Below are positions 6,919 to 22,834 of a DNA stretch of 64,000 nucleotides, piece by piece (the stretch's first letter is position 1; each line of letters begins with the position of its first letter). A model generated the notes under the pieces. The model saw nothing but the letters and a program-made list of their open reading frames with translations, did not search any database and was not told where the DNA came from. The position numbers and the translations under genes were made by a program. Source of the stretch: a virus (Duplodnaviria > Caudoviricetes); the IMG/VR virus record IMGVR_UViG_3300037851_000141, positions 224,001-288,000 of that record; one strand, given 5' to 3'.

Positions 6919-6926
6919 TATTTATA
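6919..6926 (-). promoter_or_regulatory. T4-type late promoter box TATAAATA
   Basis: Exact match upstream of the 6892 start. Confidence 0.65.
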
Positions 6927-6929
6927 TGT

Positions 6930-7928
6930 TTAAAAGCGAGTTTCGTGTCCACCGCTTTCAATATGTTCATTCATTTTCATTTTTTCTTTATAACATTCTT
7001 TAACATACTTCCATTCATCATTTGATGGCATTTTATCATATGTTTTTTCGAAATCTATGTAGAATTTAGTTTTTCCAGGCTTGGATCGTACTGATATTGT
7101 TGCTCCCATCATAAGGCAATAATCCATACAAGCTGATAATCCCAATCCATGTTGATGTGGTTTATCGTCTTTAGTTGTTATCCCTGGTCTAAATAGAGTG
7201 CTTTGTAATTCATCAGGAATACCTTTTCCATTATCTTGATATACTAATATTTTTTGGTCTGGTTTGCCGTATATTTTTATTTTAAGTGTATCTAACATAT
7301 GTTGATTATGGTCTATTGAGTTTTTTGCCAGATTATAGATGATTTGAGCTATATACATTGGACTATGTTTAGCTTGGAAGTTGAGAGATTCTTTATTGAT
7401 TATAATGTTATCTTCATGTATCATTTCTTTTATAACTCTGTCTAATAGCGTTACTTTAACCCAAGAATCAATTGTATTATTTAGAGGAAGAACCGTCATA
7501 GTGTGGTCTTTGAGTAGTTTTATATTAGAACTTAATGATGACATTATTTTTATTGCTTGTTCTAATGACATTAATGACTGATCTAGTTTTTGATGAACAC
7601 CGTGACATTTATCGCAATTCATAGGTAGATTATCTTTTACTCTTGATATAATATTAAGTACGTGTCCCAACCAAGGGCTGACTTCATGATTGATACCTGA
7701 TATCACATTTGAAAGGTGATTTGTATAACTTAATGTTGATTGAATTCTATTGGAAACGTCTTCTTTTGATACTTGAACTGGTATTGGAAAATCTGAGCCT
7801 GTTAATGATTCTGTATTGCTTTCATCTGCTGATCTTGATTTATTGTCAGGTTTTTCACAACCATGGCCAAACGTTGAGTCGGTATCTTCTTTTTTATCTT
7901 TATGAAATAAACTATCAAAAATACCCAT
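6930..7928 (-). CDS. histidine kinase (HisKA + HATPase_c) without sensor or TM domain
   Basis: H-box SGINHEVSPWLG; N-box QIIYNLAKNSIDH; G1/F-box DNGKGIPDELQSTLFRPGITTK; G2 HGLGLSAC. Confidence 0.85.
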   Translation of the reverse strand: MGIFDSLFHKDKKEDTDSTFGHGCEKPDNKSRSADESNTESLTGSDFPIPVQVSKEDVSNRIQSTLSYTNHLSNVISGINHEVSPWLGHVLNIISRVKDNLPMNCDKCHGVHQKLDQSLMSLEQAIKIMSSLSSNIKLLKDHTMTVLPLNNTIDSWVKVTLLDRVIKEMIHEDNIIINKESLNFQAKHSPMYIAQIIYNLAKNSIDHNQHMLDTLKIKIYGKPDQKILVYQDNGKGIPDELQSTLFRPGITTKDDKPHQHGLGLSACMDYCLMMGATISVRSKPGKTKFYIDFEKTYDKMPSNDEWKYVKECYKEKMKMNEHIESGGHETRF

Positions 7929-7931
7929 AGA

Positions 7932-8285
7932 TTATATTTTACATTCTCCTCCAGATAAGAAATGTTCAAGCTTCTTCCACACAATACCCATTTTACTAAT
8001 AGCTGACCATTTATTAACTGTTTTTATTGTGATATCATCTATACATCCAGTAATAAATAAGATTCTACCCAAATTTTCATTCCATTTTTCTGCGAAGAGT
8101 ACACCAGTTTTCCCATTTTTCAATATAACATCTAAAATAGAGACATCATAAATTTTTCCATTTTTCATGAGTCTTTCAGCATCTTCCCAACTGTCAGCAT
8201 AATCGACATCATGTTTTTGTTCTCGTAGTTGTTCGATTATTTCGCCAGCATAAAATTGGTGGTCTTCAAGGCAAAGGATTTTCAT
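7932..8285 (-). CDS. single-domain CheY-like response regulator
   Basis: KILCLEDH acidic pocket, ILDVIL phospho-acceptor Asp, FITG Thr, conserved Lys (ISK). Start moved to ATG 8285 by RBS GGGAGA. Confidence 0.85.
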   Translation of the reverse strand: MKILCLEDHQFYAGEIIEQLREQKHDVDYADSWEDAERLMKNGKIYDVSILDVILKNGKTGVLFAEKWNENLGRILFITGCIDDITIKTVNKWSAISKMGIVWKKLEHFLSGGECKI

Positions 8286-8299
8286 GTTCATTCTCCCTT

Positions 8300-8722
8300 T
8301 TAGAAAAGATTTATAATAAAGTTTAAGATTTGAGGCCAATGGATTACAATTTGTTTTCCTATTTCAGCAACAGCGGCACCAATGAGTGTTATCCATAAAG
8401 TTCTAACACTAAATAACTTAGATCGAGATTTATATATTTTAAGTTCTTTCCGAATTCGTTCTTCTTGTTCTTTACGTTCTTGTTCTTTTTGTATTTCATG
8501 TTCTCTTCTATAATCACCTAAAACATGGTCAAATATGGTATAGATTGTTTCTAATAGTTGATTATATTTTATAGTTTGTTTTTCGGAATCTGTAAATTTA
8601 TCAAGAATATTACTAAGTTGAAACCTTAATTTGGTTGATTCGACTGATGCCTGTTGCCACTTGCTAATCTCTTGTTTACAACGACTTACATCAGAACTAT
8701 AGTTATCTTGTGAACCTACCAT
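8300..8722 (-). CDS. coiled-coil protein with C-terminal hydrophobic segment (holin-like topology possible)
   Basis: Charged helical N-terminal part, then LWITLIGAAVAEIG...WPQILNFIINLF. Confidence 0.5.
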   Translation of the reverse strand: MVGSQDNYSSDVSRCKQEISKWQQASVESTKLRFQLSNILDKFTDSEKQTIKYNQLLETIYTIFDHVLGDYRREHEIQKEQERKEQEERIRKELKIYKSRSKLFSVRTLWITLIGAAVAEIGKQIVIHWPQILNFIINLF

Positions 8723-8743
8723 ATTATTTATTCCTCTTATATG

Positions 8744-8751
8744 TATTTATA
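8744..8751 (-). promoter_or_regulatory. T4-type late promoter box TATAAATA
   Basis: Exact match upstream of the 8722 start, followed by GAGGA RBS. Confidence 0.65.
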
Positions 8752-8809
8752 GTTTTTTGGTTGTTTTTAGGTAGAATAGTTTATAATATTGGTCTACCCA
8801 AGGATCTTT

Positions 8810-9295
8810 ATGTCAGATGATAATGATTCAATAGATGGCAGCATAGAGAATAACCGAATGATAATAGAGGATATTGATTATTTTTACAGATTTTCTCAAT
8901 TATATGCTATTTGTAACTATATTGTGACTATTGAAAATTATGATAAAATAGTAGATATAAGAGAAAAAGAAAAAATATTGGATGTTTTTATCGAAGAAAA
9001 TATAGAATGGTTAGAAGATCACAAGTTCTTAGATAGTAACATATCAATATCTGAGATTAAGGAAGTTTTTGAACCTTTGGTAAAACATAATATATTGGAT
9101 GATATTTATTATATAGATGTAAATGATCTTAATACCAGTATCCAAAAGATTACGATGTCAATTGTTGACTCTGTTCTTAATGATTTGGTTGATTCCGGTG
9201 ATATGAAGTTGGCTTGGAGTACTCAAGAGAATGATTTTGTTTTTATTCCGGCTATAGAAGAAGATAAGAAACAAAAAAGAAAGAAAACTAAATGA
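8810..9295 (+). CDS. acidic hypothetical protein
   Basis: ORF; ATG 8810 is preceded by AAGGA. Confidence 0.6.
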   Translation: MSDDNDSIDGSIENNRMIIEDIDYFYRFSQLYAICNYIVTIENYDKIVDIREKEKILDVFIEENIEWLEDHKFLDSNISISEIKEVFEPLVKHNILDDIYYIDVNDLNTSIQKITMSIVDSVLNDLVDSGDMKLAWSTQENDFVFIPAIEEDKKQKRKKTK

Positions 9296-9384: not shown

Positions 9385-9927
9385 ATGTACATAGAAGAAA
9401 CTATACTTATTCAGCAATCTTTAAGTGGTGATGTTGATGCTCTTATGTCATTATTATCTTTATATAGCGATTACATGATCAGAATTGCCTCAAGATATTT
9501 TAGAAACAACAAAGCTGATATAGATGATGTTATACAAGACGCCACCATTGCCATATGTGAATGTATATCAGAATATAAAGATTTAGGTAAAGAGTTTAGG
9601 CATTGGGTTGGGGCCGTTGTATCCAATAGTTGTAAAATGTATATAAGAAAAAATAGACGACGGAGAATGAGAGAAGCTATTGTTGGCAATGAACTTAAAG
9701 AATATTATGAAACCAAAGATTTAGATTCTTTCTTGTTTGAAGATGTAGAAAAACTATTAAAAAATATACCAGCCGAAGAAAAAGAAATAATAAGATTCCA
9801 CTATTATGAAGGACTTACATACGAACAAATATCAGAAAAAATGAACATACCTTCGGCAACCATAAGATCAAAAATAAGTAGATGTTTTATTGAACTAAGA
9901 CGACAGTTTAGCGTAATTGGTGCTTGA
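9385..9927 (+). CDS. ECF-type sigma-70 factor
   Basis: Region 2 (GDVDAL..L..Y...DDVIQD...FRHWV..VVSNSCK) and region 4 (IPAEEKEIIRFHYYEGLTYEQISEKMNIPSATIRSKISR). Confidence 0.85.
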   Translation: MYIEETILIQQSLSGDVDALMSLLSLYSDYMIRIASRYFRNNKADIDDVIQDATIAICECISEYKDLGKEFRHWVGAVVSNSCKMYIRKNRRRRMREAIVGNELKEYYETKDLDSFLFEDVEKLLKNIPAEEKEIIRFHYYEGLTYEQISEKMNIPSATIRSKISRCFIELRRQFSVIGA

Positions 9928-12305: not shown

Positions 12306-12785
12306 TTATTCCTTAATGTATGATTCTACAGCTTTGGCAATAATAGTCGGAAGAGATTTACCGAGTATATTATCTTCAACTTCTTTATTCTCTTTTTGTA
12401 TTCGGAGTCGTTCAGTTTTTCTATATTCTTCAAGGTTTTCTTCGGAATATTCTGGGTTATATGGTATCAATTCTTCATCTTTTATCATTTTTTCAAGTTC
12501 TTCCGGTGTATCTGGCATATTCCAATTCAATATCTCTTTATTAGCACCTTCTTCGGGAATCTTATCATAATCAAGAACCGGAGCCTTAAATGCCTCAAAG
12601 AACATTACATTGTTTTCAAGCAATTCCTTAAGTGATTCCCCGTAAGCTGCTTGAGGATTTTCGGTAATTCCTATAACTTTACCGTTTTCATCATAATATG
12701 CCTCTACGAAGAAATAACCAGTTTCGATTATCTCTCCATCATTATTTTTATAGTCTCTTTTGGCTATTCTGTAATTCCAACTCAT
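12306..12785 (-). CDS. hypothetical protein
   Basis: 159-aa ORF beginning MSWNYRI. Confidence 0.6.
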   Translation of the reverse strand: MSWNYRIAKRDYKNNDGEIIETGYFFVEAYYDENGKVIGITENPQAAYGESLKELLENNVMFFEAFKAPVLDYDKIPEEGANKEILNWNMPDTPEELEKMIKDEELIPYNPEYSEENLEEYRKTERLRIQKENKEVEDNILGKSLPTIIAKAVESYIKE

Positions 12786-12909: not shown

Positions 12910-13389
12910 TCATTTAAGGCTCTTTGCTAAATCGGCGTATGTTGGTGCCGACTGCTTCATTTCTACCAACAAATCCTGCTCGGTCAAGTTATATTTTTTC
13001 ATCAAGAACTTAAATCCATCAGGTACATAAACATTCTTGAATTGGCAAATAGGACATAATGCGATAGAAACATTGTGTCTTGAACACCAATCTTCACCAT
13101 TGTCTGCCGCATACTCAGCCACTTCTTCAATAGAAACATCTTCTCCATCAAAATAATCTTTTCGGTATTCAACCAATTTATCTGGATTATTCTTAAAGTA
13201 TTCTATTGCCGCATCCAATTCTGAAAATTCTTTGACAGCATGAGATTCACAAAAATCATGACCATTTTCGCATCTAATCATTCCAGCATCTTCTAAACCA
13301 AGGTCCATGCCAGAGACACATTCACCACATACGGCACAGATGAATGAACTTGAGCTTGAGTTGGTTACAAAGTCTTTTCTGAATTTCAT
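12910..13389 (-). CDS. hypothetical Cys-rich protein with N-terminal FVTNSSSSSF motif
   Basis: MKFRKDFVTNSSSSSFIC plus CxxC, CxxxH and CxxC pairs. Confidence 0.6.
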   Translation of the reverse strand: MKFRKDFVTNSSSSSFICAVCGECVSGMDLGLEDAGMIRCENGHDFCESHAVKEFSELDAAIEYFKNNPDKLVEYRKDYFDGEDVSIEEVAEYAADNGEDWCSRHNVSIALCPICQFKNVYVPDGFKFLMKKYNLTEQDLLVEMKQSAPTYADLAKSLK

Positions 13390-13398
13390 GTGGTTCCT

Positions 13399-14334
13399 TT
13401 ATTTTGTTCCCACCATTATATCCTTTGGCGAGTAGAAATCAAGAACGAGTTTCTGTAGGGCCAATTCTTTTTCTTTAGCCTCCAGATGGATATGTACGTT
13501 CTTATCTAATATCCAATCCGGTAATGGCTGAGAATAGTAATCAGAATGCGCGGTTATAAGTTTATTTGGATTGGCTGATTCACTATAATGGACTTGGGCG
13601 CTGCGTGTACCCCAAGTTGAATATGCGGTGAGAAAATCTTGAACTATAGAATCTGCTGTATGTCTAAAATGCCAGTGGTGGATATCAAAAGTAATAGGAA
13701 TATCAATCTGAGACGTAAGATAGCAGTATAAATCATTGACTGACCAGCAAGCAGCTTTATCGTCATTTTCTACAACTAACCGAGATTGTAAAGATTTTGA
13801 TAATGACTTGAATGAGTTTATGAATCTTGAAGCAGTACCTACATAATCGCCACTGTAACAGCCGCCAACATGAATATTGATCGGCAAATGGTTGTGGTAT
13901 TCGGAACAAATGATATCAGCAACCTCATTTTCTCGTTCCAATGCCAATATACCAAGTTGTCGGACAGATTCTTTGGGTGAACCAATACAAACGAACTGGC
14001 CGGGGTGAAACGATAGATGATGATCGTGTGATTGAGCAAACCGACCTATTTGTTTAAGCGTATCAGTTATTTCTTGGCTATCTGGCAATTGATTTACTGA
14101 ATACCCAACTTCTGGATCGTTGGACCTTGGAAGTGGCTCAGAACCAATACGAAACACCCTAATGTTGTGCTGCTCGTTCCAATGGAGTATTTTGAGAATA
14201 TCTTTGACATTTTGTAAAGCAAGTTGAGATGCTTTAGCGATTGTGAAGTTTCTACGTATAAAAGTGCGAGAACTATAAATGTCTTGCTTACGTAGGGTTT
14301 GGTTGATACAGCAATAGCCTAAGTTTGGTGTCAT
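13399..14334 (-). CDS. uvsE: UV DNA damage endonuclease (UvsE/UvdE)
   Basis: LGYCCIN, IRVFRIGS, LSFHPGQF, RLVVENDDK, PITFDIHH, QVHYSES, AHSDY, LEAKEKELA. Confidence 0.92.
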   Translation of the reverse strand: MTPNLGYCCINQTLRKQDIYSSRTFIRRNFTIAKASQLALQNVKDILKILHWNEQHNIRVFRIGSEPLPRSNDPEVGYSVNQLPDSQEITDTLKQIGRFAQSHDHHLSFHPGQFVCIGSPKESVRQLGILALERENEVADIICSEYHNHLPINIHVGGCYSGDYVGTASRFINSFKSLSKSLQSRLVVENDDKAACWSVNDLYCYLTSQIDIPITFDIHHWHFRHTADSIVQDFLTAYSTWGTRSAQVHYSESANPNKLITAHSDYYSQPLPDWILDKNVHIHLEAKEKELALQKLVLDFYSPKDIMVGTK

Positions 14335-15236: not shown

Positions 15237-16448
15237 TTAGGTGTGAATAAGTGAGTATATTTTACCCGACTTATTTACAATGTCAAGATTACTGTTTCTT
15301 CCATCTGACTTGTTATTGATATTGCTATCAAATTCAGAGGTCTGATGTCCACAGTCGTTGATTTCCGCCAAGCCAGCGGTATATATATTTATTGCGGCAT
15401 TATAGTCTCGATTTAGTGTAAATCCACAAATCTCGCATTTATATGTTCGTTCTTCAACTGGCATCTCGGCTTTAACATGACCACAACTTGAACATGTCTT
15501 GGTTGATGGATACCATTTGTTTACCTTATGTAAGATATTGTCGTAAATATCTTTTTTATAAGATAGCTGTCGAATAACTTTCCCTATACAAGTATCGGTA
15601 GTAGATTTACCATACTTCTTCATCCATGATTTTACAGATAAATCCTCAATTATGATAGCTTGGTTTTCGCTACATAACTGAGTTGTTAACTTATGAGTAA
15701 AATCATGTCTGATATTAGATATGCGAAGATGTAGCTTCGCTACTTTGAGTCTTTGTTTATCTCTATTTTTACTTCCTTTTTGTCTACGACTTAGTTTACG
15801 TTGATACCGTGCTAACTTCGACAAATTGGACTTGAGTGGCATTGGCGAGTGAATCTCATTACCTTGGTTGTCGGTAACGAGAGTTGTCAAACCAAAGTCA
15901 ATTCCTATTTTATTATCAGAAATACGAGGTTTTTGATAACTTCCAACATCAACTGATATTGAAGCGTACCATTTGTCTGCTTTTCTTGAAATTACACAGG
16001 AGTTGATTTTACCTTCGAATCTCAACTTCTCTGTTATTCTTATTTTACCAATAAGAGGAAGTCTGATGTGAGTATCTGATATGCTAAACTTGTCATTTGA
16101 TATATAGAATGTGTCTCGATTTCCACGTTTCTTAAATTTAGGGTAATTTGTTATCTTATTGAAGAAACTTGAGAATGCTGCACCAAGATACGCAAATGCT
16201 TGTTGATTCGCATCTTTTGGACTCTCATATATCCATGGGAATTCAGCTTCTTTTATTTTATTGAATTCTTTTTTGATTAAGTTAGCATTCGGTTTGGGTA
16301 AGTTATTATCAGATTTCCAACTTTCATACATTTTAGTCCACTTACTTAGTCCCCAATTATAAGTAAATCTGGCACAACCACATGCTTTAGCAAGTTGATT
16401 TTGCTGTTCCTTATTTGGTTGGAGTTGTATCTTGTGGCTGAGTATCAT
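15237..16448 (-). CDS. tnpB: TnpB RNA-guided endonuclease
   Basis: HTH start (ARFTYNWGL); RuvC D (IGIDFG), E (IIEDL) and D (RDYNAAINI); CxxC...CxxC zinc ribbon. Confidence 0.92.
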   Translation of the reverse strand: MILSHKIQLQPNKEQQNQLAKACGCARFTYNWGLSKWTKMYESWKSDNNLPKPNANLIKKEFNKIKEAEFPWIYESPKDANQQAFAYLGAAFSSFFNKITNYPKFKKRGNRDTFYISNDKFSISDTHIRLPLIGKIRITEKLRFEGKINSCVISRKADKWYASISVDVGSYQKPRISDNKIGIDFGLTTLVTDNQGNEIHSPMPLKSNLSKLARYQRKLSRRQKGSKNRDKQRLKVAKLHLRISNIRHDFTHKLTTQLCSENQAIIIEDLSVKSWMKKYGKSTTDTCIGKVIRQLSYKKDIYDNILHKVNKWYPSTKTCSSCGHVKAEMPVEERTYKCEICGFTLNRDYNAAINIYTAGLAEINDCGHQTSEFDSNINNKSDGRNSNLDIVNKSGKIYSLIHT

Positions 16449-16474: not shown

Positions 16475-16482
16475 TATTTATA
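16475..16482 (-). promoter_or_regulatory. TATAAATA box between tnpA and tnpB
   Basis: Exact match about 27 nt upstream of the tnpB start, in a 65-nt intergenic gap. Confidence 0.45.
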
Positions 16483-22624: not shown

Positions 22625-22834
22625 ATGAAACCAAATATCAAGGAATTCTGTCAAGAACGAACTTATTTTAGATGTGAAGAAAAAATATTCCATAACCTAG
22701 ATTCTCAACTCCACGAATATTTGTTTGACCAATTTGATTGGAATGGTGTAATCAATGGAATAATTGAGAATTTAGGATATTATATTGACCATAAAATAAA
22801 TAAACAATCGGTTCTAAATAGCTTAAAAGTATAA
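22625..22834 (+). CDS. small hypothetical protein with NKxNKxxxL-type C-terminus
   Basis: Ends HKINKQSVLNSLKV; its last codons overlap the TATAAATA box at 22830-22837. Confidence 0.55.
   Translation: MKPNIKEFCQERTYFRCEEKIFHNLDSQLHEYLFDQFDWNGVINGIIENLGYYIDHKINKQSVLNSLKV

Follow-up and report, generated by a model that had tools for sequence, protein, structure and literature searches.

A three-gene cassette encoding a small predicted membrane protein, a stand-alone response-regulator receiver and a histidine kinase occupies the minus strand at positions 6930 to 8722 of a 64,000-nucleotide (nt) stretch of viral DNA, referred to here as the window. The window represents bases 224001-288000 of the 331,849-bp virus record IMGVR_UViG_3300037851_000141 (Caudoviricetes; record judged to be 92% complete). 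An earlier note, made by reading the letters of the window, had described a late-promoter operon of a coiled-coil/transmembrane (TM) gene, a CheY-like receiver and a sensor-less kinase at this locus, and all of these elements, with their positions and their placement on the minus strand, were confirmed on the sequence. From upstream to downstream on the minus strand, the features (in window coordinates) are:

8744-8751, minus strand: putative T4-type late promoter, an exact match to TATAAATA, 22 nt 5' of the ATG at 8722.
8300-8722, minus strand: small, predicted tail-anchored helical-hairpin protein of 140 amino acids (aa), as judged from an AlphaFold2 (AF2) model and the family alignment.
7932-8285, minus strand: stand-alone CheY-like receiver of 117 aa, as judged from its Response_reg score, family profile and residue conservation.
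6930-7928, minus strand: input-less class I histidine kinase of 332 aa, with a disordered region (residues 1-48), a DHp domain (51-140) carrying H81 and a CA domain (145-292).
6919-6926, minus strand: second copy of TATAAATA, 27 nt before the fibre-like gene 6892-5735, marking the downstream limit of the cassette.

The genes follow each other closely in the order small protein, receiver, kinase, with gaps of 14 nt (containing a GGGAG ribosome site before the receiver gene) and 3 nt. No further copy of TATAAATA was found within the cassette, and pattern scans revealed neither an excess of sigma-70-like sites at the cassette nor any terminator-like site inside or after it on the minus strand. 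The second TATAAATA lies inside the 37 nt that separate the kinase gene from the fibre-like gene and, as no terminator was found between the kinase gene and this motif, read-through into the fibre genes is possible. Taken together, this layout supports the prediction that the small protein, the receiver and the kinase form one late-promoter transcription unit.

The same order of the three genes was observed, without exception, in all 13 independent metagenomic places with readable gene context (on contigs of up to 386 kb), including those with the most distant relatives of the small protein. The contigs that gave matches to the small protein also agree in length with those that gave matches to the kinase. 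These places are the window, L005/L018, L006/L007, L008, L009/L010, L011, L012, L013, L017 and L019, as well as one contig for which only a gene table was available, L020 (which ends in the receiver) and L021/L022 (which ends in the kinase). The earlier note had itself proposed that its reading be given up if the three genes were not co-conserved; they were found together at every one of the 13 places. When viral contigs were scanned, a single protein query found nothing, while an alignment-based query found three loci. Among 50,697 GenBank phage records, blastn and tblastn found no homologue of the three proteins and one weak match to the CA domain only, and a search of 185,579 species genomes for the kinase (pattern and tblastn) returned only generic haloarchaeal and clostridial kinases with 23-32% identity. 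These two negative results suggest that the module is confined to uncultured phages, among which many large ones share it. No study of this family was found in the literature, and no paper turned up when full texts were searched for 'phage-encoded histidine kinase' and similar phrases. We conclude that the three-gene module is a phage-specific variant of the two-component system with an obligate, novel membrane partner.

The kinase belongs to a distinct family. A protein search found about 49 relatives (39-65% identity, E of 4e-49 or lower, 261-432 aa), and the next matches, set apart from these by a sharp gap, were cellular kinases that carry HAMP, PAS or CBS domains (E=5e-9 and above); NCBIfam gave only generic kinase matches, far under the cut-offs. 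The HATPase_c domain of the window's kinase scores 59.7 bits against a Pfam cut-off of 26.4, and the family profile aligns over both DHp and CA to HK853 (E about 1e-13). In the AF2 model (predicted local distance difference test score, pLDDT, of 80), a helical hairpin (51-100/106-140) carrying H81 is followed by an alpha/beta CA domain, and the nearest solved folds by Foldseek are the cytoplasmic parts of ZraS, HK853 and CckA. No Pfam HisKA (PF00512) match was found for this kinase or among the precomputed domains of its 49 relatives, so that the DHp domain is recognisable by family profile and fold only. The earlier description of a complete HisKA/HATPase kinase therefore stands by profile and fold and for the CA domain, but not as a Pfam HisKA match, and the H-box (HEVSP) is unusual. 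With regard to class I kinases in general, the window's kinase has the His in the first DHp helix and a CA domain with N, G1, F and G2 boxes, but lacks both recognition by PF00512 and the HisKA phosphatase motif H-E/D-x-x-T/N. H81, which sits in helix 51-100 and aligns with the His of the HK853 H-box, is invariant in 49 kinases, as are E82, P85, N199, N203, D232, G234, G236, F246, G261 and G263 (H, N, G1, F and G2 boxes).

No periplasmic, PAS, GAF, HAMP or other input module was found in the window's kinase, and no input domain was found in any of its relatives. The claim of a sensor-less kinase with a disordered N-terminal extension is correct in that respect; the extension was put at about 65 disordered residues, but disorder (pLDDT <50) covers residues 1-48 and the DHp helix begins at residue 51. 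Only 30-103 residues precede the H-box in 34 of 50 kinases, and the other 16 have 1-3 predicted N-terminal TM helices. In a maximum likelihood tree rooted with four cellular kinases as the outgroup, the family forms one clade on a long branch away from the cellular kinases. Its deep branches are those of TM-bearing kinases; kinases lacking TM helices are grouped in nested clades, and the window's kinase belongs to one of them. Two near-basal 'TM-less' rows of this tree are probably truncated gene calls (the full reading frame of L006 has two TM helices). As the deep branches bear TM helices, the soluble 'sensor-less' kinase derives from a membrane-anchored, intramembrane-type kinase. The suggestion in the earlier note that the TM protein is the separated anchor or sensor fits this history, i.e., deep-branching kinases with TM helices of their own that were lost in the window's clade.

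One additional feature of the kinase was observed in the loop of the DHp hairpin, where residues 104-110 (window 7598-7618, minus strand) form a CxxC-H motif (N-C-D-K-C-H-G). This motif is common only to the window's kinase and its two closest relatives. In the CA domain, all members of the family have C267. Both could be redox or metal sites.

The ATG start assigned to the receiver gene is backed by the MKIL starts of homologues and by an identical 117-aa database protein. Many members of the receiver family carry a precomputed PF00072 match, and the family profile picks out receivers of known structure, among them NtrC1 (E=2e-6); the best named match in NCBIfam was the generic PRK13435 subfamily (26 bits), and all matches there were generic and far under the cut-offs. 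Within an alignment of 47 receivers, D8, D52, T79 and K98 are invariant and E7 is nearly so, and these residues, which align with the corresponding residues of the NtrC1 receiver, represent the canonical acidic pair, acceptor Asp, Thr and Lys. The earlier statement that the receiver has all catalytic residues was thus borne out across the family. In these alignments the catalytic residues are under purifying selection, and the kinase-to-receiver pair is, by its residues, catalytically intact. All 108 members of the receiver family are 97-147 aa long and hence have no output domain, so that any output would have to occur through protein-protein contact or phosphotransfer. In this the phage receiver resembles the receiver-only proteins CheY, DivK, Spo0F and CpdR, with which it shares the five catalytic positions; however, it shows no specific similarity to any of the four, and it lacks the Pro that usually comes after the Lys.

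The small protein is the least familiar of the three. No match was found for it in Pfam, PHROGs, NCBIfam or PADLOC, nor, by Foldseek of the model, in PDB or BFVD. An exhaustive profile search of 1.84 billion representatives delimited a family of 46 members, which are 98-205 aa long except for one weak match in a 1,089-aa protein. The AF2 model (mean pLDDT 82.7) consists of a helix (21-41), a turn and one long helix (51-139). According to an alignment of 29 members, the protein is made up of a variable N-terminal tail, a conserved hairpin of approx. 55 residues (about 18-75; W22, A25, S26, L40, F43 and Y53 invariant in the 29 sequences), a charged stalk that varies in length from 0 to 45 residues, and a C-terminal hydrophobic helix. 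The last 30 or so residues of the window's protein are hydrophobic. In 26 of the 29 proteins, the best C-terminal 19-residue Kyte-Doolittle (KD19) window reaches at least 1.6, with a median of 14 residues after it. The small protein is thus predicted to be tail-anchored with its conserved domain facing the cytoplasm, in agreement with the earlier call of a coiled-coil/TM gene to the extent that it is a helical protein with a C-terminal hydrophobic anchor. As it is retained in lineages whose kinase has TM helices of its own, the small protein is probably more than a passive anchor.

The earlier note had also labelled this protein holin-like, and under one alternative explanation the cassette would be a lysis-timing switch in which the small protein is a holin-, antiholin- or XhlA-like factor gated by the phospho-receiver. 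The late promoter, the membrane anchoring of the small protein and the lack of a detectable T4-type holin T in the genome (no Phage_holin_T match) would all be in keeping with such a switch, and XhlA-family and similar tail-anchored phage proteins appeared as leads in a protein atlas. However, these leads (XhlA at a score of 0.77) are at noise level, as the best atlas scores for the small protein (0.77-0.81) represent chance by the tool's own calibration (<0.9), so that XhlA and DUF1515 are leads only. Comparison with phage holins (T4 T; class I-III) showed no agreement in family match (no Pfam or PHROG holin match), in topology (a single hydrophobic segment at the extreme C-terminus plus a long cytoplasmic domain, a layout found neither in T4 T nor in class I-III holins) or in linkage to endolysin genes (no endolysin, spanin or holin gene beside the cassette in the 13 places). 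The label was dropped on these grounds, and a lysis-timing switch of this kind seems rather unlikely to us.

Assignment of the cassette to the late phase of infection depends on TATAAATA and on the nature of the phage. Homologues of T4 gp4, gp6, gp13, gp15, gp17, gp18, gp19, gp20, gp21, gp23 and gp25 were found in the genome by tblastn, together with homologues of gp44 and gp46 and a weak match to gp55; no homologue was found with T4 gp45 as the query. A gp55 candidate outside the window (G000:C1:122439-123083, minus strand) matches PHROG 234, 'late sigma transcription factor' (E=2e-25). Because of these T4 protein homologues, including the gp55 candidate, the phage is, judging by homology, a distant T4-like jumbo phage (genome G+C of 35%). 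The number of TATAAATA copies in the window (13 vs 10 +/- 3.4 expected) does not by itself represent overrepresentation. Across the genome, of which just 8.4% is non-coding, 57 of 80 copies are followed within 60 nt by a start codon in the same orientation, as compared to 10 copies with a start codon at this distance in the antisense control; the placement of TATAAATA is strongly non-random. Copies are located directly 5' of the homologues of gp13, gp18, gp19, gp20, gp21 and gp25, and no copy precedes the homologues of uvsW or rnlB. Given the non-random placement, the structural-gene homologues behind the motif and the presence of a gp55 homologue, reading the motif at 8744-8751 as a T4-type late promoter is well founded. 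Among cassette places with DNA, 11 of 12 have an exact TATAAATA 5-52 nt before the start of the small gene, and in seven relatives a terminator (hairpin plus T-run) is located just 5' of it; this succession of terminator and TATAAATA upstream of the small gene suggests that the cassette is an insulated late unit. The locus thus shows both attributes of a T4-type late transcription unit (TATAAATA at -10 and a gp55-type sigma factor in the genome), and the late-promoter operon claimed in the earlier note is upheld by the motif placement, the gp55 homologue and the tight gaps. The T4 late units transcribed with gp55 share with this genome the promoter octamer, the gp55 homologue and the position of the motif before structural-gene homologues, but T4 itself, unlike the phage studied here, has no two-component genes.

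Further observations on TATAAATA concern the genome as a whole. The distance from the motif to the start codon is bimodal, with 10 genes at 1-7 nt and the others at 16-59 nt; short-distance copies in the window are located at 22830, 24852 and 51770 (plus strand). If transcription starts a few bases past the motif, as in T4, the 1-7 nt group would give leaderless or near-leaderless late mRNAs. The gene for the gp55 homologue carries a TATAAATA of its own 24 nt upstream of its start, which suggests that late transcription may be positively autoregulated via this homologue, unlike T4 gene 55. In addition, a transposase gene in the window (15237-16448, minus strand; phrog_506, E=2e-110) lies directly behind the TATAAATA at 16475-16482 and has the look of a mobile element whose expression is driven by a late promoter of the phage.

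Bacteria signal mainly by means of two-component systems. For phages, such systems are on record almost exclusively as entries in annotations, as in Alteromonas phage V22, where they are listed among the auxiliary genes (PMC7289586). In the genome studied here, the cassette's kinase is the only histidine kinase and its receiver is the only receiver. We consider it probable that the cassette is a self-contained, phage-owned two-component phosphorelay that is made late in infection and acts at the inner membrane. We infer its phosphotransfer, binding partners and biological output as follows. The gp55-homologue late sigma factor would direct transcription of one unit from TATAAATA, yielding the small membrane protein, the receiver and the kinase. 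The kinase would dimerise via its DHp hairpin, autophosphorylate on H81 and pass the phosphate to D52 of the stand-alone receiver, with the activity of this input-less kinase being set either by late synthesis alone or by the small membrane protein. The cytoplasmic hairpin of the small protein, anchored C-terminally at the inner membrane, would most likely dock on the kinase DHp or on the phospho-receiver, and the receiver, having no output domain, would act through protein contact at the membrane. As to what this achieves, our leading guess, which we hold weakly, is that it times a late event at the membrane, lysis for instance. In a more specific version, which is possible yet fairly unlikely, the cassette would serve as a late-infection checkpoint, in which the tethered hairpin protein informs the kinase of the condition of the host membrane, or of superinfection, and the phospho-receiver times lysis or another late membrane event; if this holds, a signal-gated decision would lie entirely with viral two-component proteins. 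More generally, the cassette represents a minimal sensor-less kinase scaffold with its likely regulator as a separate protein, and it points to a late viral regulatory decision of a kind not described for T4 or any model phage.

Several observations weigh against a working phosphorelay at the membrane. In the kinase H-box (H81-E-V-S-P85), the invariant Pro aligns with a Thr of HK853 in a gap-free alignment. Thr or Asn at this position (H+4) is what Willett and Kirby are said to have found, in 2012, to be needed for the phosphatase activity of HisKA kinases; the phosphatase activity of the phage kinase may thus be weak or may work through other residues, which would make its kinase/phosphatase balance atypical and biased towards the kinase. 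The anchor of the window's small protein is borderline, with a KD19 of only 1.61 and both E and K inside the tail. No lysis, assembly or other output-suggesting neighbour of the cassette is conserved. Finally, the window's receiver scores 26.3 bits against Pfam Response_reg (PF00072), as compared to a gathering cut-off of 30.2. This score under the cut-off, along with the lack of a recognised function for the module, might also be taken to mean that the genes were acquired and are decaying or functionless, as a moron without a role. Such decay is already contradicted by the conservation pattern, as no catalytic residue varies among 47-49 diverged sequences (35-65% identity), the gene order and the promoter are conserved and no frame disruptions were seen; we regard it as scarcely credible.

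Comparison with known systems places the proposed phosphorelay between familiar types. HK853-RR468 of Thermotoga maritima (PDB 2C2A, 3DGE) shares with the phage pair the DHp four-helix-bundle hairpin and CA domain, with the His in helix 1, and there too the adjacent gene encodes a single-domain receiver; HK853 is the best PDB sequence-profile match of the phage kinase and is among its top fold matches. On the other hand, HK853 has a transmembrane and periplasmic sensor, neither of which is found in the phage kinase, its H-box reads HELRTPL as compared to HEVSPWL in the phage, and the phage DHp is missed by Pfam HisKA. The phage pair also differs in having an obligately linked, membrane-anchored third protein, in being encoded by a phage and in its late promoter. 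Intramembrane-sensing kinases such as LiaS (in LiaF-LiaS-LiaR) and BceS (with BceAB) depend on a separate membrane protein, and BceS (8G3A) was among the profile and fold matches of the phage kinase. Like the phage kinase, kinases of the LiaS/BceS type have no input domain of their own, and the deep-branching phage relatives resemble them in having 1-3 TM helices with short loops and a co-encoded membrane protein as the likely regulator. However, the accessory proteins LiaF and BceAB are unrelated to the phage small protein in sequence and topology, LiaR-type regulators bind DNA while the phage receiver has no output domain, and the window's kinase is soluble, its interaction with the small protein being only proposed. 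A different likeness is offered by Sda, a small helical-hairpin inhibitor that binds the DHp of KinA and KinB. The KinB entry 3D36, which we take to contain Sda with KinB, was among the profile matches of the kinase. The hairpin shape of Sda is akin to the predicted antiparallel hairpin of approx. 55 residues in the small protein and would be suited to DHp docking, but this is a lead only, as Sda shows no sequence or detectable fold similarity to the small protein and is a soluble protein of 46 residues with no anchor.

Detocs, a bacterial defence system (DtcA kinase, DtcB buffer receiver, DtcC receiver-effector), likewise combines a kinase and a stand-alone receiver in one operon and acts in phage-host conflict, but its regulator bears an effector, whereas the cassette is on the phage side and has no effector domain. 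Its stand-alone receiver serves as a phosphate buffer (bioRxiv 10.1101/2023.01.24.525353), which lends some credence to a second alternative, namely host cross-talk or a decoy, in which host response regulators gain or lose phosphate through the phage kinase, or host kinases lose theirs to the phage receiver. The host system acted upon could be motility (through CheY mimicry at the flagellar switch), a relay for envelope stress or a two-component defence of the Detocs kind. A sensor-less kinase and an output-less receiver would suit a device that injects or drains signals, and a flagellin gene is located 4.5 kb from the cassette in one relative (L005). Nevertheless, the kinase and receiver genes are invariably neighbours and are inherited together, which would be expected of a cognate, insulated pair; neither resembles Detocs or any other PADLOC component (nothing was significant with the PADLOC models, with best E=0.001 and E=0.01 over partial stretches); the long branch from cellular kinases makes it less likely that a specific host partner is being imitated; this explanation has no place for the obligate third protein; and late timing is ill-suited to counter-defence. 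We therefore judge host cross-talk to be distinctly improbable, and a phosphorelay that is the phage's own remains our preferred reading.

The position of the cassette upstream of fibre-like genes, mentioned in the earlier note, holds for this genome (gene 6892-5735 has a weak tail-fibre PHROG match, E=5e-8, while a PHROG search found no match for gene 5735-4641), but the link is specific to it. In seven relatives the kinase gene is followed or overlapped by a gene for an HNH-type protein of approx. 100 aa (Pfam HNH), and these proteins are orthologous, with 36-67% mutual identity:

L005, 8656-9135: HNH-type gene.
L008, 6879-7178: HNH-type gene.
L009, 6998-7321: HNH-type gene.
L012, 6026-6280: HNH-type gene.
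L013, 5873-6175: HNH-type gene.
L017, 6344-6637: HNH-type gene.
L019, 6403-6747: HNH-type gene.

Past the HNH gene, the relatives have Metallophos, Thy1 and DHFR genes on the other strand; a PHROG scan of their conserved upstream neighbours gave no informative matches. In the genome studied here, an HNH homologue with its own TATAAATA is located beside a DHFR homologue at C1:170269-170598, about 60 kb from the cassette. This distance suggests that a rearrangement split the cassette from its usual neighbours and set it before the fibre-like genes; as the trio stayed together through this rearrangement, the trio would be the functional unit and the fibre adjacency incidental. The HNH-type gene could be a fourth ancestral member of the operon or a long-resident neighbour.

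These data also bear on a virion-linked role, in which the cassette proteins would assemble or modify the adjacent fibre-like proteins or would be packaged and injected like T4 Alt. The late promoter is compatible with such a role, as is the continuation of the cassette, with no intervening terminator, into two fibre-like genes in this genome. However, fibre adjacency was found in this genome alone, many kinases and all small proteins are predicted to be membrane-anchored, which is incompatible with capsid packaging, and even close relatives do not share the N-terminal extension of the window's kinase. A virion-linked role therefore appears highly improbable, and the idea of a packaged effector was dropped, as the relatives are membrane proteins.

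A Pfam scan gave no informative matches for the neighbour genes of the cassette in the window. On the plus strand, divergent from the cassette, are a gene for an acidic 168-aa protein of unknown family (8789-9295) and a gene for an ECF-type sigma-70 factor (Sigma70_r2 and r4; 9385-9927), neither of which is conserved next to the cassette in relatives. A partner switch of the PhyR/NepR type with the latter sigma factor was considered and rejected, as a sigma gene is found near the cassette in no relative. A freshwater metagenome, probably the source sample, was the only public sequencing run that contains the whole genome, and there was no RNA run among the public sequencing runs that contain it. 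With regard to the relative L005, the flagellin gene downstream of its cassette (about 4.5 kb) is a fragment (13291-13845, minus strand; Flagellin_C, E=6e-16) that adjoins a gene for an EF-hand protein (12396-12677) at the end of a 68-kb contig classed as viral; this fragment may be phage-borne, or the contig may be chimeric or host-flanked, and it may represent a hint towards motility.

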